Source: a virus
Length of the DNA stretch: 41,484 bases
Direction: 5' to 3' (one strand)
IMG/VR virus record: IMGVR_UViG_3300021399_000034
Coordinates: 1-41,484 of that record
In this document: one piece after another, positions 2,947-31,166 of the stretch
Layout of the letters: each line of letters opens with the position of its first letter
Numbering within the stretch: position 1 is the first letter of the stretch
Translations under genes and position numbers: made by a program
The notes under the pieces: model-generated
What the model was told of the DNA's origin: nothing
Seen by the model: the letters and a program-made list of their open reading frames with translations, nothing else
Database searches by the model: none

Positions 2947-4237
2947 AGCTACGCAAGAAAGGCTGTCATACGTTTTTAGAGAGTTTGAAAACATCGTTAT
3001 CGCGTTCTCCGGTGGTAAAGATTCCGGACTACTCTTCCATCTCGTATTGCAATATATGGACCGGCATGAAGTTCACAAGCGAATTGCTTTACTGCATCAA
3101 GACTTCGAGGCTGAGTACGCGGAAACAGCCAATTATGTTGAAAAGGTATTCTCAGAATCTCCTGAATTTGTAAATAGATATTGGCTATGCTTACCGATGG
3201 CGGTTCGAAATGGGATGTCTACGTATGAACCATACTGGTACCCGTGGCACCCAGATCAGAAAGAAATCTGGGTAAGAAAGATGCCGTATTATCCATATGT
3301 GGTTACAGAGGAGAATGCGCCGTGGTTTACCAGAGGCATGACCGATCCGCAGACGCAGCACGCCTTCGGGATGTGGTATAGGGACAATCACCCCGGGAAA
3401 ACAATCATCCTGTTGGGCCTGCGGGCACAGGAATCGCTACATCGATACAGCGCGATTGCAAATAAACGCCACGCGTATGATGGCAAACAGTGGATCACGA
3501 ATGACGCCAAGAACCTATATTCGGCCTCCCCGATCTATGACTGGGAGACAGAGGATGTATGGACTGCATATGGAAAATTCGGTTTCCCATACAACAAATT
3601 GTATGACCTGTACTACAAGGCCGGGGTGAAGCTGGACGATATGCGTGTCGCGTCGCCGTTTATCGAATTTGCAGCGGATTCACTAAACCTGTATCGGGTG
3701 ATAGAACCTGATACATGGGCACGCGTTGTTGGGCGCGTAAACGGCGCCAATTTCGGTTCAATTTATGGCAGGACAAAGGCAATGGGATATAAACAGATCA
3801 CGCTCCCACCTGGACATACCTGGAAATCCTACACGCTATACCTGTTAAATACCCTACCACCTGATCTGCGTGAACATTATGTGCAAATTTTTCGGACGTC
3901 TGCAAAATTCTGGAGGGACACCGGGGGCGGGTTCTCCGAAGACGTGATCAAAGACATTAAAGACCACGGCTACAATATCCGTAAAAATGGGGTATCGAAT
4001 TTCTCCAAAGATAGCAAACAGCGGATCGTGTTTAACCAGGAAATCCCCGACGACACGGATGATGTGACCAGCACACAGGATATCCCGTCATGGAAACGGA
4101 TGTGCTATTGCATTTTAAAGAATGATTATCTGTGCAGGTTTATGGGATTCGGTCCGACAAAGATCGAGGCGCAGAGGATAAAGGCGATAAAGCAAAAATA
4201 TGCCGCGATTGCGCGGCCAAGGAGGAAATCAAAATGA
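2912..4237 (+). CDS. IbrA-like PAPS-reductase/PP-loop ATP-pyrophosphatase family protein
   Basis: PP-loop AFSGGKDSGLL (SGGKDS encoded at 3008-3025). At 441 aa it has a long C-terminal extension like IbrA. The stop overlaps the next start as ATGA (4234-4237). Confidence 0.8.
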   Translation: MEKIYQKENVYEATQERLSYVFREFENIVIAFSGGKDSGLLFHLVLQYMDRHEVHKRIALLHQDFEAEYAETANYVEKVFSESPEFVNRYWLCLPMAVRNGMSTYEPYWYPWHPDQKEIWVRKMPYYPYVVTEENAPWFTRGMTDPQTQHAFGMWYRDNHPGKTIILLGLRAQESLHRYSAIANKRHAYDGKQWITNDAKNLYSASPIYDWETEDVWTAYGKFGFPYNKLYDLYYKAGVKLDDMRVASPFIEFAADSLNLYRVIEPDTWARVVGRVNGANFGSIYGRTKAMGYKQITLPPGHTWKSYTLYLLNTLPPDLREHYVQIFRTSAKFWRDTGGGFSEDVIKDIKDHGYNIRKNGVSNFSKDSKQRIVFNQEIPDDTDDVTSTQDIPSWKRMCYCILKNDYLCRFMGFGPTKIEAQRIKAIKQKYAAIARPRRKSK

Positions 4238-4779
4238 ACAAATGGCAATCACCTGCATATGGAGTGCTCCCGGTTCCGATCGAGAAGATCAGGGCAAACG
4301 AATACAACCCGAATCACGTCGCACCGCCTGAAATGCGGTTGCTGTATGATAGCATCAAAGAGGATGGCTACACCATGCCGATCGTCTGCTACTACAATGC
4401 AGACGATGACATGTACGAAATCGTGGACGGGTTCCACAGGTATCAGACCATGCTGGACCACAAAGATATCTATGAGCGCGAGCATGGTATGTTGCCTGTG
4501 TCAGTAATCGACAAGCCGATTGACGAGCGGATGGCATCTACTATCCGTCACAACCGCGCCAGGGGATCCCACGATGTAGACCTGATGTCCGGCATCGTAG
4601 CGGAGCTGCACAAAATCGGCCGGTCGGATGCGTGGCTGGCTAAACATCTGGGCATGGACATGGATGAAATTCTGCGGCTGAAACAGCTCACCGGCCTGGC
4701 CGACCTGTACAAGGACAGGGAATTTTCCAAATCGTGGGAACCTGGGGAGGAGGTTACCGATGTTGATATCACTGGCTGA
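4234..4779 (+). CDS. IbrB-like ParB/Srx N-terminal-domain protein
   Basis: Internal ATG with SD AAGGAGGA. Motifs IRANEYNPNHV, IVDGFHRY and IRHNRARG are typical of the ParB-like nuclease/NTPase domain. It is translationally coupled to the IbrA-like gene. Confidence 0.78.
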   Translation: MNKWQSPAYGVLPVPIEKIRANEYNPNHVAPPEMRLLYDSIKEDGYTMPIVCYYNADDDMYEIVDGFHRYQTMLDHKDIYEREHGMLPVSVIDKPIDERMASTIRHNRARGSHDVDLMSGIVAELHKIGRSDAWLAKHLGMDMDEILRLKQLTGLADLYKDREFSKSWEPGEEVTDVDITG

Positions 4780-4945
4780 ATATGCGGAAATCTACGGTCG
4801 CGATCCGGCCACGGTAAGGCAGATGGCGCTGCGCGGCGGGTTTCAAACCGCGCGGAAAATAGGTAGAAATTGGGTAATTGAAGATTCGGAAGAGTATCCG
4901 GATCATAGAAAGAGAGGAGGAAAAAATGCAGATAAGCAGTTATGA
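4760..4945 (+). CDS. Small helix-turn-helix DNA-binding protein (excisionase/MerR-like HTH_17 type)
   Basis: 61 aa, SD GGAGGAGG, sequence ISLAEYAEIYGRDPATVRQMALRGG...GRNWVI. It overlaps the end of the IbrB-like gene. Confidence 0.6.
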   Translation: MLISLAEYAEIYGRDPATVRQMALRGGFQTARKIGRNWVIEDSEEYPDHRKRGGKNADKQL

Positions 4946-5060
4946 GGTTGGCAAAAAATATCCCAGCGCCATTTTGCATCAAGACGAAATAAAATTTGAT
5001 ATCACTGATGGCGGTGCAATCATTCCGAGCATGATTGTCATATTTGATAACAGGAGGTAA
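4926..5060 (+). CDS. Hypothetical small protein (44 aa), possibly a gene fragment
   Basis: ATG at 4926 preceded by a strong SD GAGGAGG, MQISSYEVGKKYPSAILHQDEIKF... The longer ORF-track version from 4878 lacks an SD. Confidence 0.3.
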   Translation: MQISSYEVGKKYPSAILHQDEIKFDITDGGAIIPSMIVIFDNRR

Positions 5061-5069
5061 TAAGAGATA

Positions 5070-5150
5070 ATGGCTAATGAACAGAATTTATTAAAAGGCG
5101 ACGAAGCGCATAAATTTACCCCCGAAGAAGCCTCGAAAGGCAGAAAGTGA
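5070..5150 (+). pseudogene. Truncated 5' remnant of a small-terminase gene (26 codons)
   Basis: MANEQNLLKGDEAHKFTPEEASKGRK* aligns with the N-terminus of the intact terS at 6388 (MAKKEDNLVKGDEAHKLTVEEQSKGGK...). Nucleotide similarity is also visible (aaaggcgacgaagcgcataaa versus aaaggcgatgaagcacataaa). Confidence 0.7.
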
Positions 5151-5160
5151 GACATAGCAA

Positions 5161-6387
5161 ATGGATAATATCAAGATAGAATATTTGCCCATAAAGGATT
5201 TAAAACCATACGAGCGTAACGCAAAGAAGCATGACGAAACACAGATTAAAAATGTGATGGAGTCAATTAAACAGTTCGGATTCGCACAACCATTGGTAGT
5301 TGATAAAGATAATGTTTTGATTATCGGTCATTGCAGATTAATCGCAAGTAAAAGATTGAAATTGAAAGAAGTTCCTGTTGTCCGTATGGATGAATTAACG
5401 CAGGAGCAGGTCGATAAATTAAGATTACTTGACAATAAGCTCAATGAAAGCGAATGGGATTTTGATTTACTTGCAGAAGATATTCCAACGCTTGATTTTA
5501 GCGATTTTGATATTGATTGGGGATTGTCCGAAGATATAGAAGAAAACACAGAAATCGAGGAAGATGAAGCGCCCGAACCACCAACAGAGCCAAAGGCAAA
5601 ATTAGGCGATTTGTATATGTTGGGAAATTCCCACCGCCTTATTTGTGGAGATTCTACGGATGTTGCGGTTATTGATAGGCTTATGGATGGGGTAAAGGCT
5701 AAACTACTTCTGACAGACCCACCGTATGGTATAAGTGTTGTATCTATTGACAAGAAGGTTGGTGGTGATAAACCATTTGGCAGTAAAGGCAAGGTTGGCT
5801 ATGGTCAAAAAGGGAAAAATAAAATACTTGATTGTAACGAATACGCTCCGATTATAGGGGATGATACAACCGATACAGCAAGAGCAAATTATGATGTCGC
5901 TTTGACTTGCACAGAAAATCAGATTATATTCGGCGGAAATTATTTCACAGACTTTTTGCCGCCGTCAAGGTGTTGGATTGTTTGGGATAAACAGAACACA
6001 GGAAATTTTGCTGATGCAGAATTGGCGTGGACTTCTTTTGATAAAGGTGTGAGGTTATATCATTTCTTGTGGAATGGCTTATGCCGTGAGGGTAGCAGAG
6101 AAGTAGAGGGTAAAACAAGAGTACATCCGACACAAAAGCCTGTCGGTATGCTTGCAGACATACTGAAGGATTTTTCAGAAGAAAACGACAGCGTTCTTGA
6201 TTGTTTCGGCGGTAGTGGTAGCACACTAATAGCCTGTGAGCAGTTAAACAGAAAATGCTATATGTGCGAAATTTCCCCACAATATATTGACGTAATCATT
6301 CAGCGTTACATAAATCTAAAAGGAACAGATAAAGACGTATTTTTGATAAGGGATGGACAGAAAATCCCCTACAATGAGGTTGAATAA
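5161..6387 (+). CDS. ParB-like N-terminal domain fused to a beta-class N6-adenine (or N4-cytosine) DNA methyltransferase
   Basis: The N-terminus has KPYERNAKKH and IIGHCRL (ParB-like). Motif IV is LLLTDPPYGI, followed by motif I LDCFGGSGST. An acidic linker lies between the domains. Confidence 0.88.
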   Translation: MDNIKIEYLPIKDLKPYERNAKKHDETQIKNVMESIKQFGFAQPLVVDKDNVLIIGHCRLIASKRLKLKEVPVVRMDELTQEQVDKLRLLDNKLNESEWDFDLLAEDIPTLDFSDFDIDWGLSEDIEENTEIEEDEAPEPPTEPKAKLGDLYMLGNSHRLICGDSTDVAVIDRLMDGVKAKLLLTDPPYGISVVSIDKKVGGDKPFGSKGKVGYGQKGKNKILDCNEYAPIIGDDTTDTARANYDVALTCTENQIIFGGNYFTDFLPPSRCWIVWDKQNTGNFADAELAWTSFDKGVRLYHFLWNGLCREGSREVEGKTRVHPTQKPVGMLADILKDFSEENDSVLDCFGGSGSTLIACEQLNRKCYMCEISPQYIDVIIQRYINLKGTDKDVFLIRDGQKIPYNEVE

Positions 6388-6777: not shown

Positions 6778-8061
6778 ATGAATAGAAAACAGGCGATAGA
6801 TTTTCTGATAAATAATCCCGTCAAGTATGCACACATGTTGGGATTCACGAAGCTGATAGAGTTTCACAACGTTTGGATAAAACAAATGATTCAAAGCAAG
6901 GACGATAAGACGTTACAGGGCAGTCGCGGAATTTTCAAAACTACCTGTGTATCGGTTGCCCTTGCCTTGATTATTATATTGCTACCGAACAAAAGAACAT
7001 TGTTTATGCGTAAAACGGATAATGACATAAAAGAAGTCATAAAGCAGGTACAGAAGATTCTGCAAGACCCGCACACGCTATATTTTGTTCAATGTATTTA
7101 CGGCGTTAATCTGAAACTAACAGTACAATCCGCAACAGAGATAAGCACCAATTTAACAACGGATATAAAAGGAACATCACAGCTTGTTGGAATGGGTTGC
7201 GGCGCTTCATTAACAGGTAAGCACTTCGATTATATATTCACGGACGATATTGTTAATGTAAAAGACCGAGTAAGTAAAGCCGAAAGAGATGCAACAAAGC
7301 TGATTTATCAAGAGCTACAGAACATCAAGAACCGTGGCGGAAGAATATTTAATACAGGCACGCCGTGGCACCGCGACGATGCATTTTCAATTATGCCACC
7401 TGCTGAAAAATGGGATTGCTACAGGCCAGAGGTGAAACAGATAATATCTGATGAGGAATTAGCGGATATTAAATCTAAGATGCTACCGTCATTGTTTGCG
7501 GCTAACTATGAATTGCGACACATAGCAAGTGAAGATGTAATCTTTACAGACCCGATAACAGGCGGCAATCCTGCAATGTGTGAGCAAGGTTTAGCACATG
7601 TCGATGCGGCGTTTGGTGGTGAGGATTACACGGCATTTACGATTATGCGATATTACGACAAGAAGTATTATGTTCTTGGGAAGCTATGGAGAAAGCATGT
7701 AGAAGATTGCTATTCCAATATTTTTGACCTTTATAACAAACATTTGTGTGGTAAACTGTACACAGAAAAGAATGCCGATAAAGGTATGGTTGCAAGGGAC
7801 TTAAAGCGCATTGGCATCAGGGCAGTGCCTTATAACGAAAGCATGAATAAGCACATCAAGATTTCGACATATCTAAAGGTGATTTGGGCAAACGTGATTT
7901 TTGTCGAAGGTACTGATCCTGAGTACATAGAGCAGATTTTAGATTATACAGAAGATGCAGAACATGATGATGCTCCAGACAGCGCATCCGTTCTTGCAAG
8001 ACTGCTTTACAGGAAAACAGGTATCAAAGAAAAAGGCTACGCAGATTTTTTGGAGGGATAA
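6778..8061 (+). CDS. terL: Terminase large subunit
   Basis: Walker A-like GSRGIFKTT, Walker B IFTDDIV, NTGTPWH, and a nuclease-domain motif HVDAAFGGEDYTAF. It lies before the portal gene. Confidence 0.88.
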   Translation: MNRKQAIDFLINNPVKYAHMLGFTKLIEFHNVWIKQMIQSKDDKTLQGSRGIFKTTCVSVALALIIILLPNKRTLFMRKTDNDIKEVIKQVQKILQDPHTLYFVQCIYGVNLKLTVQSATEISTNLTTDIKGTSQLVGMGCGASLTGKHFDYIFTDDIVNVKDRVSKAERDATKLIYQELQNIKNRGGRIFNTGTPWHRDDAFSIMPPAEKWDCYRPEVKQIISDEELADIKSKMLPSLFAANYELRHIASEDVIFTDPITGGNPAMCEQGLAHVDAAFGGEDYTAFTIMRYYDKKYYVLGKLWRKHVEDCYSNIFDLYNKHLCGKLYTEKNADKGMVARDLKRIGIRAVPYNESMNKHIKISTYLKVIWANVIFVEGTDPEYIEQILDYTEDAEHDDAPDSASVLARLLYRKTGIKEKGYADFLEG

Positions 8062-8064
8062 AGA

Positions 8065-9513
8065 ATGCTGACATATCAAGACCTGCTTGCAATAGGAGAA
8101 AGCGACAAGGCAAAAATGGATTTCGTGCGCTCTGCTATTTTCAAGCATCAATCTACTGACCTCTACAGAAACGCAGTAATCGCTGATAAGTATGATAAAA
8201 AGCAGAACGTCACGATCATGGATTATCAGAAACTGCTTTACAAGGTCACTGGAGAAGCCGTTCCGGATAACTTCAGTGCAAACTACAAGATAGCATCAAA
8301 TTTCTTCTTCAGATTCGTTACGCAGGAAAGCCAGTATCTTTTAGGGAATGGCATAATGCTTGATGAGGATGAACTGAAAGACAGGCTCGGCAAGGACTTT
8401 GACGCAAGACTGCAGGAAGTAGGCAGGGATGCGCTTGTGGATGGAGTAGCTTTCGGATTCTGGAATAAAGACCACATGGAAGTGTTTCGGATCACAGAGC
8501 TTGTGCCACTCTATGACGAAGAGAATGGTGCGCTGATGGCGGCTATTCGCTTCTGGCAGATAGACCAGTCCAAGCCGTTAAGGGCAACGCTCTATGAGCC
8601 AGATGGATATACGGAGTACATCTGGAGGAAGAAAGACGATGGGGAGATATTAAAGCCGAAGCGTCAGTATATTCTCAAGACACGTTCTACGCCTCTTGAA
8701 GGCATGGAGATTTATGACTATGAGAATTATCCTACATTTCCGATCGTGCCTCTGTGGGGCAATACTGCGCATCAGAGCGAGCTCGTAGGAATCCGAGAGG
8801 CTATAGATGCGTATGATCTCATTAAGTCTGGATTCTGCAATACTGTAGATGAAGCAAGCCTTGTCTATTGGACAATCCAGAATGCAGGAGGCATGGATGA
8901 TATCGACCTTGCTAAGTTTGTAGAGAGAATCAGAACGCTCCATGCCGCCACAGTAGAGGATGATGGAGCAAAGGCAGAATCTCATACGCTTGATGTTCCG
9001 TATCAGAGCAGAGAAGCTTTACTCATGAGATTGCGCTCAGACTTGTACGATGATTTTATGGCTCTGGATACAAAAGAGATTGCAGGAGGTGCTACCACAG
9101 CCACGCAGATCAAGGCGGCTTATGAGCCTATTAACAGCAAGGCTGATATGTTTGAATACTGTGTCCATGATTTTCTGGATGGAATCTTTTTACTTGCGGG
9201 AATCGAAAGTGATGCCACATTCACACGCTCGATTATTGTAAACTCGCAGGAGGAAATCACGACAGTTATTTCAGCCGCCACATATCTCAGTTCAGAATAT
9301 GTCACTCGGAAGATCCTCATGCTTCTTGGAGATGGGGATAAGATTGATGATGTTCTAAAAGAAATGGATGAAGGCGAGGCAGAGATCTATCAGGACGAAG
9401 AAGATGAAGAAATGGAAGGAGAAGAAGATACTGGTCTTGATGATGAAGAAGATGAAGATGACGACATAGACGCTCAGCTTGATGCTCTGCTGAAAGAATT
9501 GGAGGACATGTAA
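8065..9513 (+). CDS. Portal protein (SPP1 gp6-like)
   Basis: 482 aa, follows terL, with a very acidic C-terminal tail (EDEEMEGEEDTGLDDEEDEDDD). Confidence 0.8.
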   Translation: MLTYQDLLAIGESDKAKMDFVRSAIFKHQSTDLYRNAVIADKYDKKQNVTIMDYQKLLYKVTGEAVPDNFSANYKIASNFFFRFVTQESQYLLGNGIMLDEDELKDRLGKDFDARLQEVGRDALVDGVAFGFWNKDHMEVFRITELVPLYDEENGALMAAIRFWQIDQSKPLRATLYEPDGYTEYIWRKKDDGEILKPKRQYILKTRSTPLEGMEIYDYENYPTFPIVPLWGNTAHQSELVGIREAIDAYDLIKSGFCNTVDEASLVYWTIQNAGGMDDIDLAKFVERIRTLHAATVEDDGAKAESHTLDVPYQSREALLMRLRSDLYDDFMALDTKEIAGGATTATQIKAAYEPINSKADMFEYCVHDFLDGIFLLAGIESDATFTRSIIVNSQEEITTVISAATYLSSEYVTRKILMLLGDGDKIDDVLKEMDEGEAEIYQDEEDEEMEGEEDTGLDDEEDEDDDIDAQLDALLKELEDM

Positions 9514-9944
9514 TGGCATACGCAAGCAAATATTATGATCCGGTAAAGCGACATGAGTATTACATGAAGCATAGAAAGCTAAAGGGAAAGAAAAGCAGAA
9601 CGTCTACTGCAGGTCTTAATGAAGATGGTAAGATTGCCGCTAAAGAAGTAAAAGAAGCAATTATGGCAGAGAAGAAAGCGTATCTTGAGAAGCAAAAAGG
9701 GATTATGAATAATCAGATTAAGTCCCTGCGTGAGAAGCTGAAAGCGATGTCTAAAGAAGAACGTAAGAAAAACAAAGAAAAGATACAGGAACAAATCAAA
9801 GGGTTACGTGCTTTATACAAGGATCACAAAGCCAAAGTCAAAGATTTTTACAACGAGAAATATGCGCAGGAATTAGACAAGATTAAAGCAGACAAGAGTA
9901 TGCTAAGGGCATATAAATCGAAGAAGAAAAAGAAGTCCTCATGA
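9513..9944 (+). CDS. Lys-rich coiled-coil protein, unknown function
   Basis: 143 aa. It is coupled to its neighbours at both ends (TAATG with the portal gene upstream; a 4-nt ATGA overlap with the next gene at 9941-9944) and lies between the portal and Mu-F-like genes. Confidence 0.6.
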   Translation: MAYASKYYDPVKRHEYYMKHRKLKGKKSRTSTAGLNEDGKIAAKEVKEAIMAEKKAYLEKQKGIMNNQIKSLREKLKAMSKEERKKNKEKIQEQIKGLRALYKDHKAKVKDFYNEKYAQELDKIKADKSMLRAYKSKKKKKSS

Positions 9945-11002
9945 GTAAATTCAGAAAAGGAAAATTAAAGTTATCTAAAGAAGAGCTTGAAGCATACGAG
10001 AGCATGTGCAAAGACATGGAAAAGAGGATTGCGAAAGAGTATGCGCAGGCAAAAAAGGAAGTCGCTGATAAAGCAGACGATTATTTCAGACGCTTTAAAA
10101 AGAAAGACGCTGTTTGGAGACAGTGGGTAGCATCAGGACAAAAAACCAAAAAGGAGTATCAAAAATGGCGGACTAATCAGATGGCAGTGGGCGAGAGATG
10201 GAAAGACATGCGTGATGTACTCGCTACCGATCTTGCGAACAGCGATAAGATTGCCGCCAGTATTATGAATGAGTATATTCCTGAGGCTTATGCCCTTGGT
10301 CACAATTGGGGCACTTACGAAGTCGAAGCAGATGCTAAAATCAACACCGGATACACGCTTTATAATCGTGAAGCGGTAGAGAAATTGATCAAAGAAGAAC
10401 CTAGTCTTCTGCCAAAAGCGAAAGTCAGCATTCCGAAAGATAAACTGTGGAACAGACAGCACTTAGACTCTGCTATTACGCAGGGCATTCTGCAGGGAGA
10501 AAGCATTCCTGATATTGCGAAGCGTCTTCAGTCCGTGACAGATATGAACCATAAGGCGGCACTCAGGAATGCCCGTACCATGACAGGATCCGCAGAAAAC
10601 GCAGGTCACATGAATGCTTATAAACGTGCTGAAGATATGGGGATTGAACTTGAGAAACAGTGGGTTGCTACGTTTGACAACAGGACACGAACTTCTCATA
10701 GAAATTTGCATGGAGAAACGCAGGAAATAAACACTCTGTTTTCAAATGGGCTGATGTATCCGAAGGATCCTAATGGACCGTCTGAAGAAGTGTATAACTG
10801 CAGATGCAGAGTTATCAGCAATGTGAAAGGATTTCAGCGTGATCTTTCCCCGATGTATGACGAAAATCTTATGGGAATGACATTTGAGGAATGGAAAGAC
10901 GCAAAGCCTGTTTACCAGAAGATCACTCATGGAGAGGAAGTCGCTGAAGCACAGAAGATGAGATATGTAAGGGAGTACAGGAATGGCAATCGGAAACGTT
11001 AA
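9941..11002 (+). CDS. Head morphogenesis / minor capsid protein (Mu F / SPP1 gp7 family)
   Basis: Signature VATFDNRTRTSHRNLHGE ... YNCRCRV. Confidence 0.85.
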   Translation: MSKFRKGKLKLSKEELEAYESMCKDMEKRIAKEYAQAKKEVADKADDYFRRFKKKDAVWRQWVASGQKTKKEYQKWRTNQMAVGERWKDMRDVLATDLANSDKIAASIMNEYIPEAYALGHNWGTYEVEADAKINTGYTLYNREAVEKLIKEEPSLLPKAKVSIPKDKLWNRQHLDSAITQGILQGESIPDIAKRLQSVTDMNHKAALRNARTMTGSAENAGHMNAYKRAEDMGIELEKQWVATFDNRTRTSHRNLHGETQEINTLFSNGLMYPKDPNGPSEEVYNCRCRVISNVKGFQRDLSPMYDENLMGMTFEEWKDAKPVYQKITHGEEVAEAQKMRYVREYRNGNRKR

Positions 11003-25438: not shown

Positions 25439-25693
25439 ATGACATCTGAGGTACTTGTTGCAGTGTTGTCATTGCTCGGCACTGCATTCGGATCAGTCAC
25501 AGGAATTATGGCAGCAAACAAGCTGACCAACTACCGCATTGCTGAGCTTGAAAAGAAGGTTGATAAGCATAATACAATTATCGAACGCTTCGCCCTTCTC
25601 GAACAGGACAATAAGACTCAGTGGAATCGCATCGATGACCTTCGAAGTTCAATGGACGAAATTAAAAAGGAGGTACTACATTATGAAAATTGA
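25439..25693 (+). CDS. Lysis-associated membrane protein (N-terminal TM plus coiled coil; XhlA-like role possible)
   Basis: 84 aa, SD GAGGAG, hydrophobic VLVAVLSLLGTAFGSVTGIMAA followed by a coiled coil. It is the first gene of the lysis cassette. Confidence 0.5.
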   Translation: MTSEVLVAVLSLLGTAFGSVTGIMAANKLTNYRIAELEKKVDKHNTIIERFALLEQDNKTQWNRIDDLRSSMDEIKKEVLHYEN

Positions 25694-25907
25694 CTGGACT
25701 AGAAAATTGACTAGTAGAAAATTCTGGGTGGCAATTATTGGATTCGTCACTGGTCTTTTAATTTTTCTTGGCAAGTCCGAATCTGAAGCCGCACAGGTTG
25801 GGGCGCTTATTATGCAGGGAGCAAGTGTGATTGCTTATTGTATCGGCGAAGGACTGGCTGACAGTGTGGAGGATAGAAATGGCGGCACGGATAGTTCATG
25901 CGAGTAA
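25683..25907 (+). CDS. Holin (phi-LC3/holin_4-like)
   Basis: Internal ATG 25683, MKIDWTRKLTSRKFWVAIIGFVTGLLIF...GALIMQGASVIAYCIGEGLAD. It has two hydrophobic segments and overlaps the endolysin start. Confidence 0.7.
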   Translation: MKIDWTRKLTSRKFWVAIIGFVTGLLIFLGKSESEAAQVGALIMQGASVIAYCIGEGLADSVEDRNGGTDSSCE

Positions 25908-26619
25908 GGACGAAAATGGCAGATATACGAATGGAATTGCAGGAGATCAGACTGCGCAGGAAGTGTGTTTGCGGACATGGTATAATAGACCATGGGATAC
26001 GGTACTTCGTCCATTAAATCTTAAGCTTGCATCTCATATCGCTTCTATTGCTCAAATTCTTGCAAAGTGCGTGAAAATAGGATACGATCAGTATCAGCGA
26101 ACTACATTATACGACCAGTGCGAAAGGATTAATTGGGATATTTCAAGGATCAATGATATTGCTCCATGTGAATGTGATTGTTCGTCACTGATAGCCGTAA
26201 TTTTGCGATTCTGCGGCGTTTCGATACCAAAGACAGTATATACTGGGAACATGACATCATACGTCCTTGGAACGGGAAAATTCGAATGTCTGCGTGATCC
26301 AAAATATCTCACACAAGATGCTTATCTGAAAAAAGGTGACATCATTTTAAATACAGCACATCATGTGGCTGTTGTAATAGATGATGGAGAAAAGGCGCAG
26401 ATTAATTTCACAGCATACGCCGCACAGGTCAAGGTAAATACATATCTGCAAGTAAGAACTGCTCCAAATGGGGCAGAATATAAATTTTCTGATGGCACAT
26501 CATTCAGATTGCCGAATGGCATGACTGTTGCAATAGTACAGGAGAGTGAGAAATGGGGCAGATTATCGGATATACAGGGATGGGTATCATTATCTTACTT
26601 GGCGCGTGCTACTTCGTAA
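25879..26619 (+). CDS. Endolysin: NlpC/P60-type cysteine peptidase domain plus C-terminal SH3b-like domain
   Basis: ATG 25879 with the SD GGAGGA. Catalytic-type CECDCSSLIAV and TAHHVAVV. The C-terminus YLQVRTAPNG...GWVSLSYL is SH3b-like. Confidence 0.8.
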   Translation: MAARIVHASKDENGRYTNGIAGDQTAQEVCLRTWYNRPWDTVLRPLNLKLASHIASIAQILAKCVKIGYDQYQRTTLYDQCERINWDISRINDIAPCECDCSSLIAVILRFCGVSIPKTVYTGNMTSYVLGTGKFECLRDPKYLTQDAYLKKGDIILNTAHHVAVVIDDGEKAQINFTAYAAQVKVNTYLQVRTAPNGAEYKFSDGTSFRLPNGMTVAIVQESEKWGRLSDIQGWVSLSYLARATS

Positions 26620-26823: not shown

Positions 26824-27096
26824 ATGGAACAGATCCCGTACTATGTACATGAGGGCATGATGGTGAGAATGGAACGGACAATCAAGCGTCTGTGGATTCT
26901 TTGCGTTATCATCTTCCTCGCCTTTGTAGCAAGCAATGCGGCTTGGATCGTTTATGAGGCTCAATGGGAAGCAGTGGAAACTACAAGCCAGTCAGTTGAT
27001 CAAAAGATTGATACTGGTGATGGTTCAGCTACGGTAACTGGAATAGGTGATATTTATGGCACGGATTCATACAGTAGCGAAGAAAACAACGACTAA
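26824..27096 (+). CDS. Single-pass membrane protein (90 aa), unknown function
   Basis: SD AAGGAGGAAA. N-terminal cytoplasmic YYVHEGMMVRMERTIKRLW, TM segment ILCVIIFLAFVASNAAWIVY, and an acidic extracytoplasmic tail. Confidence 0.7.
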   Translation: MEQIPYYVHEGMMVRMERTIKRLWILCVIIFLAFVASNAAWIVYEAQWEAVETTSQSVDQKIDTGDGSATVTGIGDIYGTDSYSSEENND

Positions 27097-27193
27097 ATCA
27101 AGACGCAGGAAAACAGGTGGTTCTTCTGGATATATCCAGTGTAACCTATGTAAGGGTACTGGAAGAATCAAAAATTGGCACAAGAAAAAGTGA
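27056..27193 (+). CDS. Very basic 45-aa peptide with a DnaJ-type CxxCxGxG motif (putative)
   Basis: MARIHTVAKKTTTKSRRRKTGGSSGYIQCNLCKGTGRIKNWHKKK*. SD AGGTGA (27045-27050). Its TGA (27191-27193) overlaps the ATG (27193-27195) of the next gene. It is below the ORF-track cutoff. Confidence 0.35.
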   Translation: MARIHTVAKKTTTKSRRRKTGGSSGYIQCNLCKGTGRIKNWHKKK

Positions 27194-27387
27194 TGGAATA
27201 CACGAATAGCGAGATCACAAATCTCATAGACGAGCATATCCATAGTGAGCGTGACAGAGCCATCCTCAAGCGCAGGCTTGTGGATGGCATTCGTTATGAA
27301 AAATTAGCCGAAAATTTTGATATGTCAGTACGGCAGATCAAGAACATCGTTTACAAGTCAGAAGATAAGCTGTTCAAATATTTATAA
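27193..27387 (+). CDS. Sigma-70 region-4-like HTH protein (64 aa)
   Basis: MEYTNSEITNLIDEHIHSERDRAILKRRLVDGIRYEKLAENFDMSVRQIKNIVYKSEDKL has the region-4/LuxR-type HTH pattern. The ORF-track TTG start at 27175 is possible but less likely. Confidence 0.65.
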   Translation: MEYTNSEITNLIDEHIHSERDRAILKRRLVDGIRYEKLAENFDMSVRQIKNIVYKSEDKLFKYL

Positions 27388-27428
27388 GTTGCAAGCAATA
27401 AGTTGCAATAAGTTGCACGAAAGTTGCC
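27387..27428 (+). repeat. Four direct AAGTTGC(A/C) iterons at 13-, 10- and 11-bp spacing
   Basis: AAGTTGCA at 27387, 27400 and 27410, and AAGTTGCC at 27421. The first overlaps the TAA stop of the sigma-r4-like gene and the last runs into the terminator stem. Confidence 0.85.
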
Positions 27429-27457
27429 CTCCTACTTCATTGTAGAAGGGTTTTTTT
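27427..27457 (+). terminator. Rho-independent terminator
   Basis: CCCTCCTAC (27427-27435), loop TTCATT, GTAGAAGGG (27442-27450) with one mismatch, then T7 (27451-27457). Confidence 0.7.
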
Positions 27458-27491: not shown

Positions 27492-27866
27492 ATGTGGCAG
27501 GAATATAATCCGAATCCGACTGGCAGAAAGGTTGGAGATTGCGCTGTCAGAGCGGTGGCAAAGGCACTTGATATTGATTGGGAAACAGCGTACTTGCTCA
27601 TGATGGCGAACGGTTATCACATGGGCGATATGCCGTCTTCGGATTCAGTGTGGGGCGCAGTACTGCGACAGCACGGATTTTACCGAACGGCAATTCCAAA
27701 TAAGTGCCCGGACTGCTACACAGCGGAAGATTTCGCCAAAGACAATCCGAAAGGTACGTTTGTTTTGGGATTTGGAGGTCATGTCGCCACTATCAAAGAC
27801 GGAACGCTTTTCGATTCTTGGGACAGTTCACAGGAGATACCGATCTACGTTTGGTTTAAAAAATAG
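27492..27866 (+). CDS. Putative papain-fold cysteine peptidase/amidase (Cys-His-Asp), 124 aa
   Basis: ATG 27492 after the SD AAGGAGA (27479-27485). The ORF-track start at 27456 lies inside the terminator. Candidate triad: GDCAVRAV, GGHVATI, DSWD. Confidence 0.45.
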   Translation: MWQEYNPNPTGRKVGDCAVRAVAKALDIDWETAYLLMMANGYHMGDMPSSDSVWGAVLRQHGFYRTAIPNKCPDCYTAEDFAKDNPKGTFVLGFGGHVATIKDGTLFDSWDSSQEIPIYVWFKK

Positions 27867-27908: not shown

Positions 27909-28295
27909 ATGGCATACAATAGTGGTTTTCCAGTTGGGTATCAGCAGTATTTTCAACCGCCTCAATATGGCGGCTCTTATGCCCCACAGCAGGCTTCTCA
28001 GCAACTCATGACTCCACCTACCATCCATGCGGAAATCGTCCAAATTGGAGGCGAAGAGGAGGCTCTTGGCTTTCCTGTAGGAGCAGGGCAGTCACAGATG
28101 ATGATGGCGAAGGATGATTCTGCGATCTACATAAAAACAGCTTATGCAAATGGTCAGAGTGCGCTTGTAAAATACACAAGAGAAAAGGCGAAGCCACATG
28201 AAGCTGTGAATGCTGATTACGTTACAAGGGAAGAGTTTGAAAACAGAATCGCCGAGATCATGAAGAGCAGAAAGGCAGTGGAAGAAGATGAGTGA
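27909..28295 (+). CDS. Hypothetical protein with a Q/P/Y-rich N-terminus (128 aa)
   Basis: MAYNSGFPVGYQQYFQPPQYGGSYAPQQASQQ..., then a beta-rich core and a charged C-terminal helix. SD AAAGGA. Confidence 0.65.
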   Translation: MAYNSGFPVGYQQYFQPPQYGGSYAPQQASQQLMTPPTIHAEIVQIGGEEEALGFPVGAGQSQMMMAKDDSAIYIKTAYANGQSALVKYTREKAKPHEAVNADYVTREEFENRIAEIMKSRKAVEEDE

Positions 28296-28512
28296 ACTTT
28301 TTAATTCTCTTGGAGAAAAACCACAGACGCAACAGCAGTTAGTTCAGCAACTCAAAAACGATCCCGCCTCTTTCATGAAAAGCAGAGGGTTTAACATTCC
28401 GCAGGGTGTGGATGTTCACAATCCGCAGTCCATCATAAATGGATTGCTACAGTCTGGGCAGATAGGCAATGACCGATTCCGAATGGTCATGCAGATGCTT
28501 AGGCGAAGATAA
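28288..28512 (+). CDS. Hypothetical Gln-rich small protein (74 aa)
   Basis: It overlaps the upstream gene by 8 nt. No family was recognised. Confidence 0.6.
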   Translation: MSELFNSLGEKPQTQQQLVQQLKNDPASFMKSRGFNIPQGVDVHNPQSIINGLLQSGQIGNDRFRMVMQMLRRR

Positions 28513-28613
28513 GAATTCAATGCCGAGCGTACGGCGGCTTGAAGAATATAAACCGACTATCCGATTTGAGGGTAGCCGCTCACCGATAAAAGTTATCGGA
28601 GAAAGGACACAAA

Positions 28614-29492
28614 ATGGCTTTAACAGATGACAATGCTATGGTAATGCCTGTCGCTCCTATGTATGGTGGTGGCAACGGCGGATTTGGCTCAGGCTTCGGC
28701 GGTGACTGGGGATGGATCATCCTGCTTCTGCTGATTGCAGGAAACGGCTTCGGTTTTGGTGGCTGGGGCGGAGGCAATCTTGCGGCAGACGGAGCAATGT
28801 TGTATCCGTGGATGAATCAGGCGGAGGTTACCAACAGCGGCTTCAGAGATCAGATGCTGAACGGAAATATCAATTCTATCCGTGACGGCATCGGCGACAT
28901 TTCCACACAGCTTTGTAACGGCTTTGCAGGAGTAAATGCAGGAGTAGCTAATGGCTTTGCGCAGGCTGAGATTGCGGCGAATGGTCGGCAGATGGCAAAC
29001 ATGAATCAGGCGTTTGCGGCTCAGACTGCTATGACTCAGGGGTTCAACGGGCTTCAGAGCCAGTTCGCGGATTGTTGCTGTGAAAACAGGCTCGGTCTTG
29101 CCGATCTTAAGTACACGGTGGCTACCGAGAATTGTGCGGACCGTACACAGTCCATGCAGAACACTAGAGATATTATTGACGCCCAGACTCGTGGTACGCA
29201 GGCTATTCTTGATAAGCTTTGCGCTCTGGAACTGGATGGTGTCAAAGGTCAGCTTGCACAGGCTCAGCGCGAGAATGTTGGTCTGCAGAATCAGCTCAAC
29301 ATGGCGGCTCTTCGTGAGTCCCAGACTGCGCAGAATGCATTCATTTCGCAGGGCTTTGCGAATGAAGTGGATGCTCTGTACAACAGACTGAATACTTGCC
29401 CTGTTCCGTCTACGCCTGTGTATGGCAGAACTCCTATCTTTACTTGCAACCAGAACAGCGGTTGCGGCTGTGGATGTGGCGGTAGTTTCTGA
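28614..29492 (+). CDS. Gly-zipper membrane protein with a Q/N-rich coiled region and 11 Cys (C-terminal GCGCGCGG)
   Basis: 292 aa. The N-terminus YGGGNGGFGSGFGGDWGWIILLLLIAGNGFGFGGWGGG is YjcZ-like. It also carries a CCCEN motif and ends TCNQNSGCGCGCGGSF. Confidence 0.7.
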   Translation: MALTDDNAMVMPVAPMYGGGNGGFGSGFGGDWGWIILLLLIAGNGFGFGGWGGGNLAADGAMLYPWMNQAEVTNSGFRDQMLNGNINSIRDGIGDISTQLCNGFAGVNAGVANGFAQAEIAANGRQMANMNQAFAAQTAMTQGFNGLQSQFADCCCENRLGLADLKYTVATENCADRTQSMQNTRDIIDAQTRGTQAILDKLCALELDGVKGQLAQAQRENVGLQNQLNMAALRESQTAQNAFISQGFANEVDALYNRLNTCPVPSTPVYGRTPIFTCNQNSGCGCGCGGSF

Positions 29493-29503
29493 GGAGGTGC
29501 GGT

Positions 29504-29968
29504 ATGGCAGAATATTTAACACGGGACACGGTAGAGAGTGTAGCACTCAATACAGCAATTCCCTTCATAAATTCTATTCCGTGCAATAAAGGATATATTT
29601 TTCATCAGAGTGGCACTGGAATTTTTGTTCTGCGCGGTATCGTGAATAATCCGCAGGGTTGTTTTGCGAGATACGAGGTTGAGTTTACTGGGAACATCGC
29701 GATTCCTGAAAACGGTACAATCACTCCGATTGCTACGGCAATCGTGGTATCAGGCGAAAGCAGAGAAGGTAGCAGAAGCATTTACACGCCTGCGGCAGTT
29801 GATGAGTACGGAAACGTAACAAGCCGTGCAACAGTCGATGTTCCGAAAGGATGTTGTTTTACAGTTTCGGTAGAATACGTGAACGGATCGGTCAATGATC
29901 CTGCCACAGTACCGACTCCGCTGATCAATGTGGTAGACGGCAGTCTGAGTATCCGCAGAACAGCGTAA
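29504..29968 (+). CDS. Putative BclA-C-terminal/C1q-TNF-like jelly-roll protein (154 aa)
   Basis: The strand pattern AIPFINSI...GIFVLRG...YEVEFTGNIAIP...IATAIVVSGE...FTVSVEY...SLSIRRTA resembles BclA C-terminal domains from memory. SD GAGGAGG. Confidence 0.4.
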   Translation: MAEYLTRDTVESVALNTAIPFINSIPCNKGYIFHQSGTGIFVLRGIVNNPQGCFARYEVEFTGNIAIPENGTITPIATAIVVSGESREGSRSIYTPAAVDEYGNVTSRATVDVPKGCCFTVSVEYVNGSVNDPATVPTPLINVVDGSLSIRRTA

Positions 29969-29981
29969 GAAAGGAGATGTC

Positions 29982-30374
29982 ATGCATAAACTTTATGAGT
30001 TAAAAGAAAAGCTGATGGGCGAACTTGAGGACTACTCCGAGAATGGCAAATTCAGTAAAGAAGATGTAGAGTCCATCAAGTACATTGCCAGTGCGATTGA
30101 TCATATCTGTAATATCGTTGATGGTGATGAAGAGTACAGCAATGCCTATATGTACGATGATGGCTCCTATGCGTATGAGAGAGGCAATAATCGCGGTGGT
30201 AATCGGAGCTACGCAAGAGGCAGAGGCAGAGGCGCACGCCGTGATTCGATGGGCAGATATTCAAGAGCCAACGAAGACATGGTTGAACAGCTTCGGTCGA
30301 TGATGCAGGAAGCTCCCGATGAACACACGCGACAGGAGTTTCAGCGGTTCATTACGAAAGTCGAGCAGATGTAA
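29982..30374 (+). CDS. Hypothetical protein with a central RG-rich (RGG-box-like) segment (130 aa)
   Basis: Helical acidic N- and C-terminal parts flank YERGNNRGGNRSYARGRGRGARRDSMGRYSR. SD AAGGAGA. Confidence 0.65.
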   Translation: MHKLYELKEKLMGELEDYSENGKFSKEDVESIKYIASAIDHICNIVDGDEEYSNAYMYDDGSYAYERGNNRGGNRSYARGRGRGARRDSMGRYSRANEDMVEQLRSMMQEAPDEHTRQEFQRFITKVEQM

Positions 30375-30386
30375 GGCGGTGATCCC

Positions 30387-30719
30387 TTGATAACGGAAAA
30401 AGATTTGCAGGAAGCAATAGCCGAGTGTCAAGGGACACGCAACCCAGATGCCCGAACCTGTATCAAGCTTGCGGCATACTTGACGATCAAGGAGCATTTA
30501 TATCCACAGGTTGTTGAAAATGATTCTTCTGCGATTCCAGTTTACTCTTATGCCGAACCGCCCTCTGTAGAATACACAGGTGATAGCGTGTTTTCTCAGT
30601 CGGTATCCGGCAAGGACATGACTGAGGTGTGGAAGATCATGGATGAGCTGATGGACACACTGCAAGTGATTCAGCCTCGGCTATATGATAGCGTTATTCG
30701 GAAGATAGACAGCATTTAG
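30387..30719 (+). CDS. Hypothetical protein (110 aa)
   Basis: TTG start after AAGGCGGTGA. It contains the motifs AIAECQGTRNPDARTCIKLAAY and MDELMDTLQVIQPRLYDSV. It is the last gene before a terminator. Confidence 0.55.
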   Translation: MITEKDLQEAIAECQGTRNPDARTCIKLAAYLTIKEHLYPQVVENDSSAIPVYSYAEPPSVEYTGDSVFSQSVSGKDMTEVWKIMDELMDTLQVIQPRLYDSVIRKIDSI

Positions 30720-30736
30720 CTGTCTATCTTTTTTTT
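30703..30736 (+). terminator. Rho-independent terminator
   Basis: AGATAGACAGC (30703-30713), loop ATTTA, GCTGTCTATCT (30719-30729), then T7. It overlaps the stop codon of 30387..30719. Confidence 0.85.
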
Positions 30737-30744
30737 ATTCTTCT

Positions 30745-30843
30745 GTGTAGGATAAGTGTAGGATAAAGGTACATTTATATAAAATGTCTATAGAAAAAAT
30801 AGTCCTATAGGGATTTTATGAAAATGCACGATTATCCTACACT
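30745..30843 (+). repeat. Inverted-repeat element, copy 2 (87-bp core plus an extra tandem GTGTAGGATAA)
   Basis: GTGTAGGATAA occurs twice in tandem (30745-30755 and 30756-30766). The left arm 30757-30776 is identical to 11442-11461. The right arm 30821-30843 matches 11505-11527 at 22 of 23 bases. Confidence 0.85.
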
Positions 30844-30890: not shown

Positions 30891-30919
30891 TTTACATCAT
30901 GCCTTGATGGTGGTAGTAT
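30891..30919 (+). promoter_or_regulatory. Early promoter P2
   Basis: TTTACA (30891-30896), a 17-nt spacer ending TGGTGG, then TAGTAT (30914-30919). It is paralogous to P3 at 38368-38396. Confidence 0.6.
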
Positions 30920-30986: not shown

Positions 30987-31166
30987 ATGACATTAGGTGA
31001 GCGGATGGTAAGATACCGAGCCAAGAATCGGATCACGCAGACAGAGTTGGCTCAGAGATGCGGAGTTACTCTCCAGACCATCTCAAATGTGGAGCGAGGG
31101 ATTCAAGACCCAAGCAGGGTCACAGTTCAGAAGATTGAACTGGTAATTGATGAAGATCAGCAGTAA
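30987..31166 (+). CDS. XRE-family (Cro-like) HTH transcriptional regulator (59 aa)
   Basis: MTLGERMVRYRAKNRITQTELAQRCGVTLQTISNVERGIQDPS... SD AAGGAGG. It is below the ORF-track cutoff. Confidence 0.8.
   Translation: MTLGERMVRYRAKNRITQTELAQRCGVTLQTISNVERGIQDPSRVTVQKIELVIDEDQQ

Follow-up and report, generated by a model that had tools for sequence, protein, structure and literature searches.

Known examples of ejected, internal or matured viral cargo include gp7, gp16 and gp20 of phage P22, the internal proteins of T4 and Dar of P1, as well as the adenovirus peptidase AVP with pVI, pVII and the fibre knob. Phage internal and ejection proteins and protease-matured virion cargo are the subject of two articles (PMC8954989; PMC7697877). 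Here we describe a cassette of seven genes, a papain-like peptidase gene followed by six genes designated g1 to g6, on the + strand of the IMG/VR virus record IMGVR_UViG_3300021399_000034 (positions 1 to 41,484, the whole of this stretch of 41,484 nucleotides being referred to below as the window). Like those systems, the cassette consists of accessory late genes whose products have no signal peptides and which lie beside head genes in one lineage, and by analogy it may likewise bring together a small cysteine peptidase, whose nearest relatives cut behind GG, with a hydrophobic segment that acts on membranes, a basic protein rich in Arg and a trimeric jelly-roll. It differs from them in that there is no homology and in that it has its own regulator and terminators. 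We propose that the cassette probably builds a Cys-rich protein assembly without secretion, and that this assembly is likelier to be linked to the virus particle than to a spore coat.

Two other kinds of described locus are close enough to be compared. The UviA/UviB-BCN5 and TcdR/TcdE loci combine a sigma factor, a holin-like protein and a cargo that is released by lysis. The cassette resembles them in having a small sigma-related regulator and a small membrane protein ahead of cargo that lacks export signals, but its regulator is a 70-aa region-4-like domain and not a full group-5 sigma factor. With morons and genes of lysogenic conversion it shares the form of a terminator-bounded unit, a place between the lysis genes and the integrase, and movement between phage backbones; unlike them it comprises seven to nine genes in a fixed, coupled order in thousands of phages, has no secreted products, persists in phages for which lytic growth alone has been seen, and turns up within a head-gene cluster too. 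We regard the cassette as a phage module of a new kind, because its families are known only as PHROGs of 'unknown function' and because the defining features of no described system are present in full.

Gene content, conservation and synteny of the cassette

A first-pass annotation had read g1 to g6 as an orphan set of six genes, flanked by two terminators and devoid of standard phage functions, that might build a layer on the host envelope or spore. The six + strand open reading frames (ORFs) are found at 27909-30719, where that annotation had placed them, and the public gene calls hold identical products, that of g6 with its TTG start among them, all six under the name 'hypothetical protein'. 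The label 'orphan' fails, as the families are huge and strongly syntenic. Counts from a 90%-clustered database are lower bounds: homologues of g3 number at least 8000 and form 1106 clusters at 50% identity, while profile searches find at least 5993 for g4 and, for the peptidase gene, at least 7818. None of these homologues is named and none has a Pfam domain.

Synteny was followed in a set of 154 phage and prophage loci containing g3. Loci were found with a tight g3 alignment, 73 of them in GTDB genomes, mostly rumen and gut metagenome-assembled genomes (MAGs) of Clostridia on phage-sized contigs, and 80 among the at least 505 loci in IMG/VR. By tblastn, the peptidase gene is present in 133 of the 154 loci, g4 in 130, the sigma-region-4-like gene sig4 in 92, g5 in 89, the membrane-protein gene tm90 in 70, g1 in 67, g6 in 62 and g2 in 32; for other genes of the window the corresponding figures are 13 for the endolysin, 9 for XRE, 15 for the tape measure protein (TMP), 13 for Tal and 0 for a 570-aa tail protein. 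De novo ORF clustering recovers divergent small proteins as well, at fixed places relative to g3: the peptidase at -3 (54 of the 87 loci where the family was detected), g1 at -2 (65/89), g2 at -1 (58/75), g4 at +1 (directly 3' of g3 in 89/91), g5 at +2 (73/89) and g6 at +3 (35/40). Over 126-154 loci the order peptidase-g1-g2-g3-g4-g5-g6 stays the same, whereas the lysin, XRE, tail-tip and replication genes on either side vary, and the six genes occur together widely outside this genome. One product of the clustering, family 7, was considered as an alternative to g4 and rejected, as it consists of spurious antisense ORFs of g3. The unit that travels is larger than the six genes recognized at first: the peptidase gene, sig4 (27175-27387) and tm90 (26824-27096) move along with them, and the complete unit would read, in order, tm90, the sigma-region-4-like regulator, phage-specific repeats, a terminator, the peptidase gene, g1, g2, an RNA leader, g3 to g6 and a second terminator.

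Across loci, the junctions between cassette genes overlap or leave 10-13 nt (range -8 to +13 nt), as in genes whose proteins are made in fixed ratios, the exception being the g2-g3 junction. In the window g1 and g2 overlap by 8 nt, as reported, and the reported gaps of 11-14 nt are found for g3/g4/g5/g6; they do not extend to the junction of the peptidase gene and g1 (42 nt) or to that of g2 and g3 (101 nt), and this 101-nt spacer contains a conserved structured non-coding element which the first-pass annotation had overlooked. Both of the terminators that it had described are present. One closes the cassette (30700-30740, +) with a 14-bp stem (30700-30732) and a T-run that overlap the end of g6; the other, a hairpin and T-run at 27426-27457, 5' of the peptidase gene, had been missed by a consensus terminator scan.

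The products have, as had been supposed, no standard phage function: Pfam, NCBIfam and PADLOC give no match (0 PADLOC families for all seven proteins), and PHROGs gives only families of 'unknown function' (phrog_3754, phrog_21718, phrog_16490 and phrog_20016). No NTPase, nuclease or sensor domain was found in the cassette products with Pfam, NCBIfam, PHROGs or PADLOC, no signal-peptide-like or lipoprotein-like N-terminus was seen in any of them, and the sole hydrophobic stretch among them is a borderline Gly-rich core in g3 that begins at about residue 33. PDB sequence-profile searches with g1, g3, g4, g5, g6 and the peptidase returned only coiled-coil, designed-helix or TPR-like noise, and Pfam scans of diverse members of the peptidase, g1, g3 and g5 families returned only singleton noise (single g5-family ORFs matched DUF7841 and DUF4175, one each). 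Comparison with hhalign gave no kinship between g5 and g6 or between g4 and g1, and hence no paralogy of these pairs inside the cassette. The impression that the proteins are rich in Cys is borne out by g3, g4 and the peptidase, with 3.1-3.7% Cys against a background of 1.5%.

The closest cultured phage, Butyrivibrio phage Ceridwen, has the whole cassette (QHJ73765-QHJ73769, QHJ73771 and QHJ73772, of which QHJ73765 is the peptidase and QHJ73768 the g3 homologue), with an additional 264-aa gene (QHJ73770) between g4 and g5 and three further small genes 3' of g6, ahead of the terminator (7358-8152 and 8995-10067, respectively, of the Ceridwen locus, L001), from which it follows that the cassette tolerates insertions. 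Elsewhere (L087, L101, L126, L136 and others) the first cassette gene, between the terminator and the peptidase gene, encodes an extra protein of ~64 aa (clustering family 25, xxYIxRLxxCGYxxExAxxxCxDF…) that is missing from the window. Cassette homologues are also found on GTDB contigs binned to Endomicrobiaceae, Fretibacterium, a Selenomonas isolate and Phascolarctobacterium (L063, L065, L066, L072), and these diderm or non-Bacillota contigs represent either a wider host range or binning errors.

The peptidase, g3, g4 and their partners

The peptidase gene (27492-27866, +) encodes a standalone papain-fold cysteine peptidase of 124 aa, C39-like or Josephin-like, with a predicted Cys17/His97/Asp108 triad; D16, C17, R20, H97 and D108 are invariant among 35 diverse members and 121 database homologues. 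With its AlphaFold2 (AF2) model (pLDDT 96), the best Foldseek matches are Josephin-2, LahT150, ComA PEP and PCAT1 (TM-score 0.46-0.49, E 0.07-0.2; 6mpz, 5xe9, 3k8u and PCAT1 are among the top structures); Josephin-2 and the C39 peptidases, its best neighbours in structure, are of clan CA and cleave behind Gly-Gly. By these weak scores the modelled peptidase appears closest to the double-glycine (C39) peptidases, with which it shares the papain-like fold and near-identical triad positions (C17/H96/D112 in ComA PEP; PMC5481443). A further similarity to the C39 and PCAT systems lies in the neighbouring gene, g3, whose product opens with a conserved peptide that closes on GG or GN and leads into a Gly-rich hydrophobic segment. 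In contrast to those systems, the cassette peptidase is neither fused to nor adjacent to an ABC transporter, none being present in the cassette of the window or in the gene families that recur beside it; its putative substrate g3 is a 292-aa coiled-coil protein; and its family also occurs without g3, in Geobacillus phage GBK2, in Bacillus Tsamsa-like phages and in Lak megaphages. The window protein matches no peptidase family in Pfam or NCBIfam, and 35 diverse members match none in Pfam.

The 292-aa product of g3 (28614-29492, +), the anchor protein of the cassette, matches phrog_16490 (E 1e-33) and has no Pfam or PDB relative in scans of family members and a PDB profile search. It opens with a conserved peptide of 20-25 residues, present in three interchangeable versions, whose family pattern is MALTxxN..MVMPVAPMYGG and which ends in GG or GN. 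Double-glycine leaders have the consensus LSxxELxxIxGG; a minority version of the g3 peptide, LSAAD[IVL]AAVxG[NG], fits it in 18 of 277 homologues, whereas the majority version MVMPVAPMYGG, with its two prolines, fits it poorly. Next comes the segment that had been taken at first for a Gly-zipper transmembrane helix. Its hydrophobic core comprises merely ~12 residues (mean Kyte-Doolittle hydropathy 1.50 over 19 residues) between Gly-rich acidic flanks, and residues 1-75 contain no Lys or Arg; because the core is so short, with acidic flanks on both sides and no Lys or Arg, this is not a classical membrane anchor. After the core the protein is A/Q/N-rich and apparently forms a long helical or coiled-coil region, and its tail is rich in Pro and Cys (CPVPxxPVYGxxPIFTC…GCGCG). 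The count of 11 Cys given at first pass is correct, and ~10 Cys are conserved among the family. A link to Gly-rich YjcZ-type peptides had also been drawn, but g3 has no NCBIfam or Pfam match at E up to 0.1. The YjcZ-type peptides are tiny, as against the 292 aa of g3.

Directly 3' of g3, g4 (29504-29968, +) encodes a standalone 154-aa beta jelly-roll of the TNF/C1q/BclA-C-terminal type. The AF2 model is moderate (pLDDT 75, pTM 0.67) and all-beta, as expected from the first reading, and Foldseek bears out the likeness to the BclA C-terminal domain and C1q that had been noticed: matches in the PDB include F-BclA 9h38 (E 9e-7) and 3twi, 1wck, 8d02, 7r1m, 1rj7 and 4qqp (TM-score 0.62-0.70), and they comprise BclA C-terminal domains, BxpB/ExsFA/ExsF, EDA and C1q, the fold being a ten-strand jelly-roll. 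The same fold also matches the knobs of phage fibres and spikes (8ke9, 9k09, 9eul), and matches in BFVD reach TM-scores of 0.73-0.77, with many standalone gut-phage proteins of 130-143 aa among them. Its conserved Cys are C27 and CC117-118. By sequence there is no Pfam, NCBIfam or PDB-profile match, the sole structural hint being a weak match to a tail-fibre PHROG (E 0.011). The jelly-roll is thus common to g4, the BclA-C/BxpB/ExsFA/ExsF group and TNF/C1q, and BxpB and ExsF are likewise standalone domains of ~150 aa; g4 differs in that identity in the PDB matches is only 7-17%, in that it is a bare domain without a collagen-like stalk (GXX collagen-like repeats are present in no cassette protein), and in that its carriers are phages, one of them observed only in lytic growth, on a host that does not sporulate. 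Moreover, the fibres of viruses and phages often bear the BclA/TNF/C1q fold at their tips. An analogy with the isopeptide attachment of BclA to BxpB was set aside, the 2011 mBio source paper being flagged as retracted.

The remaining products are smaller and are recognized chiefly by their conserved motifs. That of g1 (27909-28295, +; phrog_21718, E 1e-9) has a variable Q/P/Y-rich N-terminus followed by a small conserved domain, …VxGExxAxxYPVxxGxxVxLxDxxxxxIYxKSxDxxG…, and that of g2 (28288-28512, +) is a Gln-rich basic protein of 74 aa whose NCBIfam match to an NHLP leader family, at 17 bits, stays below the cut-off of 50.9. The g5 product (29982-30374, +) is helical, with a central basic motif, SYARGRGxNxRRDSMGRYS, that is near-invariant; g6 (30387-30719, +) encodes an acidic protein of 110 aa from its TTG start, with conserved ends (MITExDLxEAIAECQGxRNPNANTCIKLAAYYTI … DELMxTLxVxNPxLYxxVMRKL) and weak TPR-like similarity (E 0.01). 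The RG-rich motif of g5 and the AIAECQG and LQVIQPRLYD motifs of g6 to which the first-pass annotation drew attention are present in the translations. Neither g1 nor g5 has a Pfam or PDB relative.

Control regions and genomic setting

Two small genes lead into the cassette. The product of tm90 (26824-27096, +), directly 5' of the sigma-region-4-like gene, is a single-pass membrane protein of 90 aa: its one hydrophobic segment covers residues 25-43 (Kyte-Doolittle 2.54), and its cytoplasmic N-terminus is conserved (family consensus VPYxVxExxMxRxERxxKRL). By ORF clustering it lies at -4 to -11 relative to g3 in 45 loci, it is conserved in Ceridwen, and it matches no holin family. The second gene, sig4 (27175-27387, +), encodes a 70-aa sigma-70 region 4-like helix-turn-helix protein, a candidate regulator of the cassette, with below-threshold Pfam matches to Sigma70_r4 and Sigma70_r4_2 (E 0.002) and weak PHROG matches to sigma factor and late activator families. 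Either sig4 or a second sigma-region-4-like family stands directly 5' of the cassette at every position that the cassette occupies. A very basic 48-aa ORF (27047-27193, pI 11.5) that overlaps the end of tm90 and the start of sig4 is a candidate gene, and it contains CNLCKGTG, a CxxCxGxG zinc-finger-like motif.

Between sig4 and the peptidase gene, four direct repeats (A)AGTTGC(A/C) with a period of ~10-14 nt occupy 27387-27425 (+) and abut the terminator stem. Three exact copies of AGTTGCA fall inside 31 nt, in the only such cluster in the window; the three other copies are scattered, at chance level. In related loci repeats are found at the same place, differing in sequence from phage to phage and leading into a strong hairpin with a T-run, and in the window they are probably the binding site of the putative regulator. 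The intrinsic terminator-like hairpin that follows (27426-27457, +; GCCCTCCTAC, loop TTCATT, GTAGAAGGGT and a T7 run) ends 35 nt ahead of the peptidase start codon. A hairpin and T-run lie at most 230 nt 5' of the peptidase gene in 91 loci, with an exact TTCATT loop in 8 of them and close variants in more, so that the loop type recurs on differing stems. A strong covariation score for this hairpin was discounted, as the sequences had been picked as hairpins with similar loops and the count is circular. No clear sigma-70 promoter was seen 5' of the cassette in a scan of the window. We read sig4, the repeats and the terminator as a dedicated control region, which would act by read-through control or by activation.

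The non-coding g2-g3 spacer (28513-28613, +), with a median length of 94 nt in 76 loci, is a candidate leader or internal promoter region for g3 to g6. It contains a small hairpin with the palindromic core CGTACG in its loop (28522-28535, +), which is found in 49 of 124 loci. After an AT-rich TATAAA (28545-28550, +) come two hairpins that abut each other, ACCG-[H1]-CGCUNAC-[H2] (28552-28600, +), and that end at the unpaired Shine-Dalgarno sequence of g3. When leader sequences selected by position were submitted to RNAalifold, H1 was found, with compensatory changes in 5 of its 7 pairs. Covariation of H2 on a MAFFT alignment was dropped, since the helix stood there in two registers, and single-sequence minimum-free-energy folds were used instead; they give the two-hairpin fold for 19-20 of 21 leaders, among which H2 is represented by at least 10 distinct sequences. 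The two-hairpin motif occurs once in the window and lies at most 70 nt 5' of g3 in ~25 loci; it matches no Rfam family, and an Rfam scan of the entire window gave no family at gathering score. The conserved leader suggests that g3 to g6 probably form their own transcription or processing unit, for which it would have a stabilizing or regulatory role, and the exposed Shine-Dalgarno sequence is compatible with high expression of these four genes.

In most loci the cassette lies 3' of the lysis genes, and in every locus inspected it is co-oriented with the late genes. In ~50 of the former a tyrosine integrase stands 4-11 genes downstream on the opposite strand, so that the moron position between lysis genes and integrase which had been suggested for this terminator-bounded unit is the one observed in these temperate relatives. 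A variant gene order, g1-g3-g4-g5-peptidase, occurs in three settings: between TerL-portal-minor-head genes and scaffold-major capsid protein (MCP) genes in L026, L030, L039, L040 and L055 (the head-gene neighbours having been checked with PHROGs in L040), directly upstream of TerL in L038, and after tail or lysis genes in three loci. The variant is often adjoined by a GT2/GtrB-like glycosyltransferase (clustering family 37; L040 12523-13581 and eight other loci), which hints at glycosylation of a cassette protein or of a host surface polymer. The self-contained cassette can occupy various places in the late regions of gut and rumen phages. What the window has in common with Ceridwen is limited to the portal-to-TMP block (29-69% identity) and the cassette (31-62%); TerL, Dit/Tal/receptor-binding protein, holin, lysin and replication genes are not shared. 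On Butyrivibrio fibrisolvens, Ceridwen has been observed in lytic growth only (PMC7372960); the genus Butyrivibrio does not form spores (PMC6249431).

The window itself is a complete-looking siphovirus genome with all genes on the + strand. Replication and DNA-modification genes occupy 31.5-41.5 kb and 0-6.4 kb; TerL (6778), portal (8065), MCP (12253), TMP (15685) and Tal (18722) follow, with other tail genes as far as 24548. A canonical two-TM (two-transmembrane-segment) holin, with MKIDWTRKLTSRKFW as its probable true start, is encoded inside the 25539-25907 ORF, which overlaps the endolysin ORF, and an ELLD/SH3 endolysin, recognized by Pfam, is annotated at 25831-26619, with a TTG start at 25831 that is probably too far upstream; with these two, the lysis genes of the window are already accounted for. 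No integrase was seen in the window or in Ceridwen. A run at 1525-6387, directly before the packaging genes, encodes an SNF2-type helicase, a PAPS-reductase-like protein (phrog_2302) and a fusion of ParB with a DNA methyltransferase, and may be a DNA-modification or anti-restriction set. On the other side, 3' of the cassette at 30746-30843 and 30891-30919, GTGTAGGATAA occurs twice as a direct repeat and once inverted (TTATCCTACAC), 5' of a TG-extended promoter-like site and a Cro-like XRE gene (30987-31166), in what is probably an early operator and promoter region.

Possible roles of the cassette

The cassette appears to specify a structural assembly rather than an enzymatic machine, because its sole enzyme is a small peptidase and neither an NTPase nor a nuclease accompanies it. 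The same absence, taken together with the fixed, coupled gene order, the lack of export signals and the presence of Cys-rich, coiled-coil and jelly-roll parts, argues for a self-assembling structure that is made in the cytoplasm. Our best guess, and it is a tentative one, is an accessory assembly that is made late and becomes associated with the virion. In its favour are the strict co-orientation with late genes, the retention of the cassette in phages for which only lytic growth has been seen, its places among head genes, the mosaic that links the window with Ceridwen, and the likeness of g4 to the knobs of phage fibres and spikes. Virion decoration had been one of the ideas of the first-pass annotation, and it gains weight from these features and from the lack of signal peptides. 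We infer late timing, complex formation, cleavage of g3 and association with the virion, as follows: the assembly would be made late, built in the cytoplasm and not secreted, and it would be destined for a place on or in the virion, probably at the head, as an accessory that aids infection. In such an assembly g3 would be the stalk or the membrane-active subunit, with a short N-terminal peptide that is perhaps cut off by the peptidase, an uncharged Gly-rich segment that could be fusion-peptide-like, and Cys clusters that might serve for cross-links or metal binding. A trimeric cap or knob of the TNF/BclA-C type that binds g3 would be provided by g4, and g5, with its basic RGRG/RRDS motif, g1, g2 and g6 would be partner or assembly subunits.

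A number of observations weigh against a place in the virion. No product matches known virion protein families, besides the weak tail-fibre PHROG match of g4, and a regulator of its own, an attenuator-like terminator and a closing terminator are rare for structural genes. The cassette moves among late-region sites, it occupies the moron locus in ~50 relatives, and in the head-cluster variants it stands in an insertion zone shared with HNH and glycosyltransferase genes, so that the position within the head cluster may be a mere insertion hot spot. It is found with at least two MCP PHROG families (phrog_544 and phrog_10), which is awkward for surface decoration. In Tsamsa-like phages the peptidase occurs alone, beside kinase and Ocr-like early genes, and the type of g3 leader does not co-vary with the peptidase; an enzyme-substrate link between the two is attractive but gains no support from co-evolution. 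We regard as unlikely a more elaborate form of the virion proposal, in which the cassette would be a transferable kit for infection in gut and rumen siphoviruses: a packaged GG-specific cysteine peptidase would mature g3, a coiled-coil protein resembling a fusion peptide, and g3, with g4 as a TNF-like trimer and g5 as a basic protein of RGG type, in or on the capsid, would help the genome to cross the membrane or to resist host attack, under the control of a membrane-tethered sigma-region-4 regulator and a dedicated RNA leader. This would be analogous to adenovirus AVP, pVI, pVII and fibre knob, or to P1 Dar and the T4 internal proteins. In siphoviruses, passage of the membrane is normally thought to be given by the tape measure protein.

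It is possible, if doubtful, that the cassette instead protects the infected or lysogenic cell, as a moron-type conflict module in which a membrane complex attached through g3 would cause superinfection exclusion or block DNA entry, with tm90 and the sigma-region-4-like protein as its switch. The terminators on both sides, the cassette's own regulator and the phage-specific repeats suit a module of this kind, as do its relocation among sites, its place from lysis genes to integrase in ~50 loci, the GtrB-like glycosyltransferase that adjoins it in 9 loci and the occurrence of the peptidase family beside Ocr-like and kinase early genes. The hydrophobic Gly-zipper segment of g3 would also fit, but g3 is without a positive-inside signature. 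Conflict had been put forward at first pass as well, and the defence-system models of PADLOC return nothing for it; NTPase, nuclease and sensor domains are lacking, and a fixed, coupled order of seven genes at ~60% median identity is unlike fast-evolving exclusion genes. Such a module would, in addition, be retained in phages seen only in lytic growth and be embedded in head clusters, neither of which favours it.

An effector that is released on lysis is unlikely. Here g3 would be a large bacteriocin-like protein with a glycine zipper, active on membranes, its double-glycine-type leader cut by the C39-like peptidase, and g4 would be a lectin-like targeting subunit; no transporter would be called for, because phage lysis would release the complex. 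What makes this idea tempting is that the nearest structures to the peptidase are double-glycine leader peptidases with the triad spacing of ComA PEP, that the g3 peptide ends in GG or GN just ahead of an uncharged Gly-rich segment, with 18 of 277 versions fitting the double-glycine consensus, that g2 has its sub-threshold NHLP-leader match, and that the cassette adjoins holin and endolysin genes and a sigma-like regulator. Yet the Foldseek scores are weak (TM-score <0.5, E >=0.07) and Pfam scans of the window protein and 35 members find no peptidase family, the majority g3 leader fits poorly and leader type and peptidase do not vary together, and a 292-aa coiled-coil protein is unlike the known peptides with GG leaders. 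No immunity gene or transporter is evident, and the killing of neighbours is without obvious benefit for a lytic phage.

A role as an accessory of lysis itself, in which a spanin-like or fusion-like g3 with its partners would disrupt the remaining envelope layer at the end of infection, seems very unlikely. Most loci do place the cassette directly 3' of the holin, endolysin and tm90 genes, and the layout of g3, an Rz-like coiled-coil with Cys and a Pro-rich Cys tail like that of Rz1, recalls the Rz/Rz1 pair; some carriers are, moreover, binned to the diderm Selenomonas, Phascolarctobacterium and Fretibacterium. Most carriers and the cultured host, however, are monoderm Bacillota. In several loci the cassette lies apart from the lysis genes, which are not themselves conserved along with it; an N-in topology signal is absent from g3, and since no product has a signal-peptide-like or lipoprotein-like N-terminus, the partners, without export signals, could not work outside the membrane.

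Least probable of all is the main idea of the first-pass annotation, a spore-coat-like or exosporium-like layer on the host spore or envelope, which has in its favour the BclA-C/BxpB/ExsF fold of g4, the richness of the proteins in Cys, Q/Y and Gly, the many Clostridia among the carrier MAGs and the fact that spore-coat proteins too lack signal peptides, because they are assembled in the mother cell, and which has against it that the sole cultured carrier, Ceridwen, infects the non-spore-forming Butyrivibrio and was observed in lytic growth only, that Pfam and NCBIfam find no YjcZ, BclA_C, coat or exosporium family and no collagen-like stalk is present, that the cassette is found inside head-gene clusters and in a window showing no integrase, and that the TNF/C1q fold is equally typical of viral fibres.

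If the role in the virion is the true one, the cassette would define a new class of proteins, accessory to the virion or ejected from it, among the phages of Gram-positive anaerobes, and if one of its rivals is, a new membrane-level conflict system or a new lysis-released effector. Ceridwen is in culture with its host (DSM 3071), which makes decisive experiments feasible, and several parts of the cassette are tractable on their own: a minimal standalone C39-like peptidase, a standalone BclA-C/TNF-like phage domain, a new covarying 5' leader RNA, and a control region composed of repeats and a terminator. Among the uncharacterised gene sets of gut and rumen phages, the cassette ranks with the more widespread, and it moves whole, regulator included, from one phage backbone to others that are not otherwise related. 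Solving its function would annotate thousands of phage genomes together.

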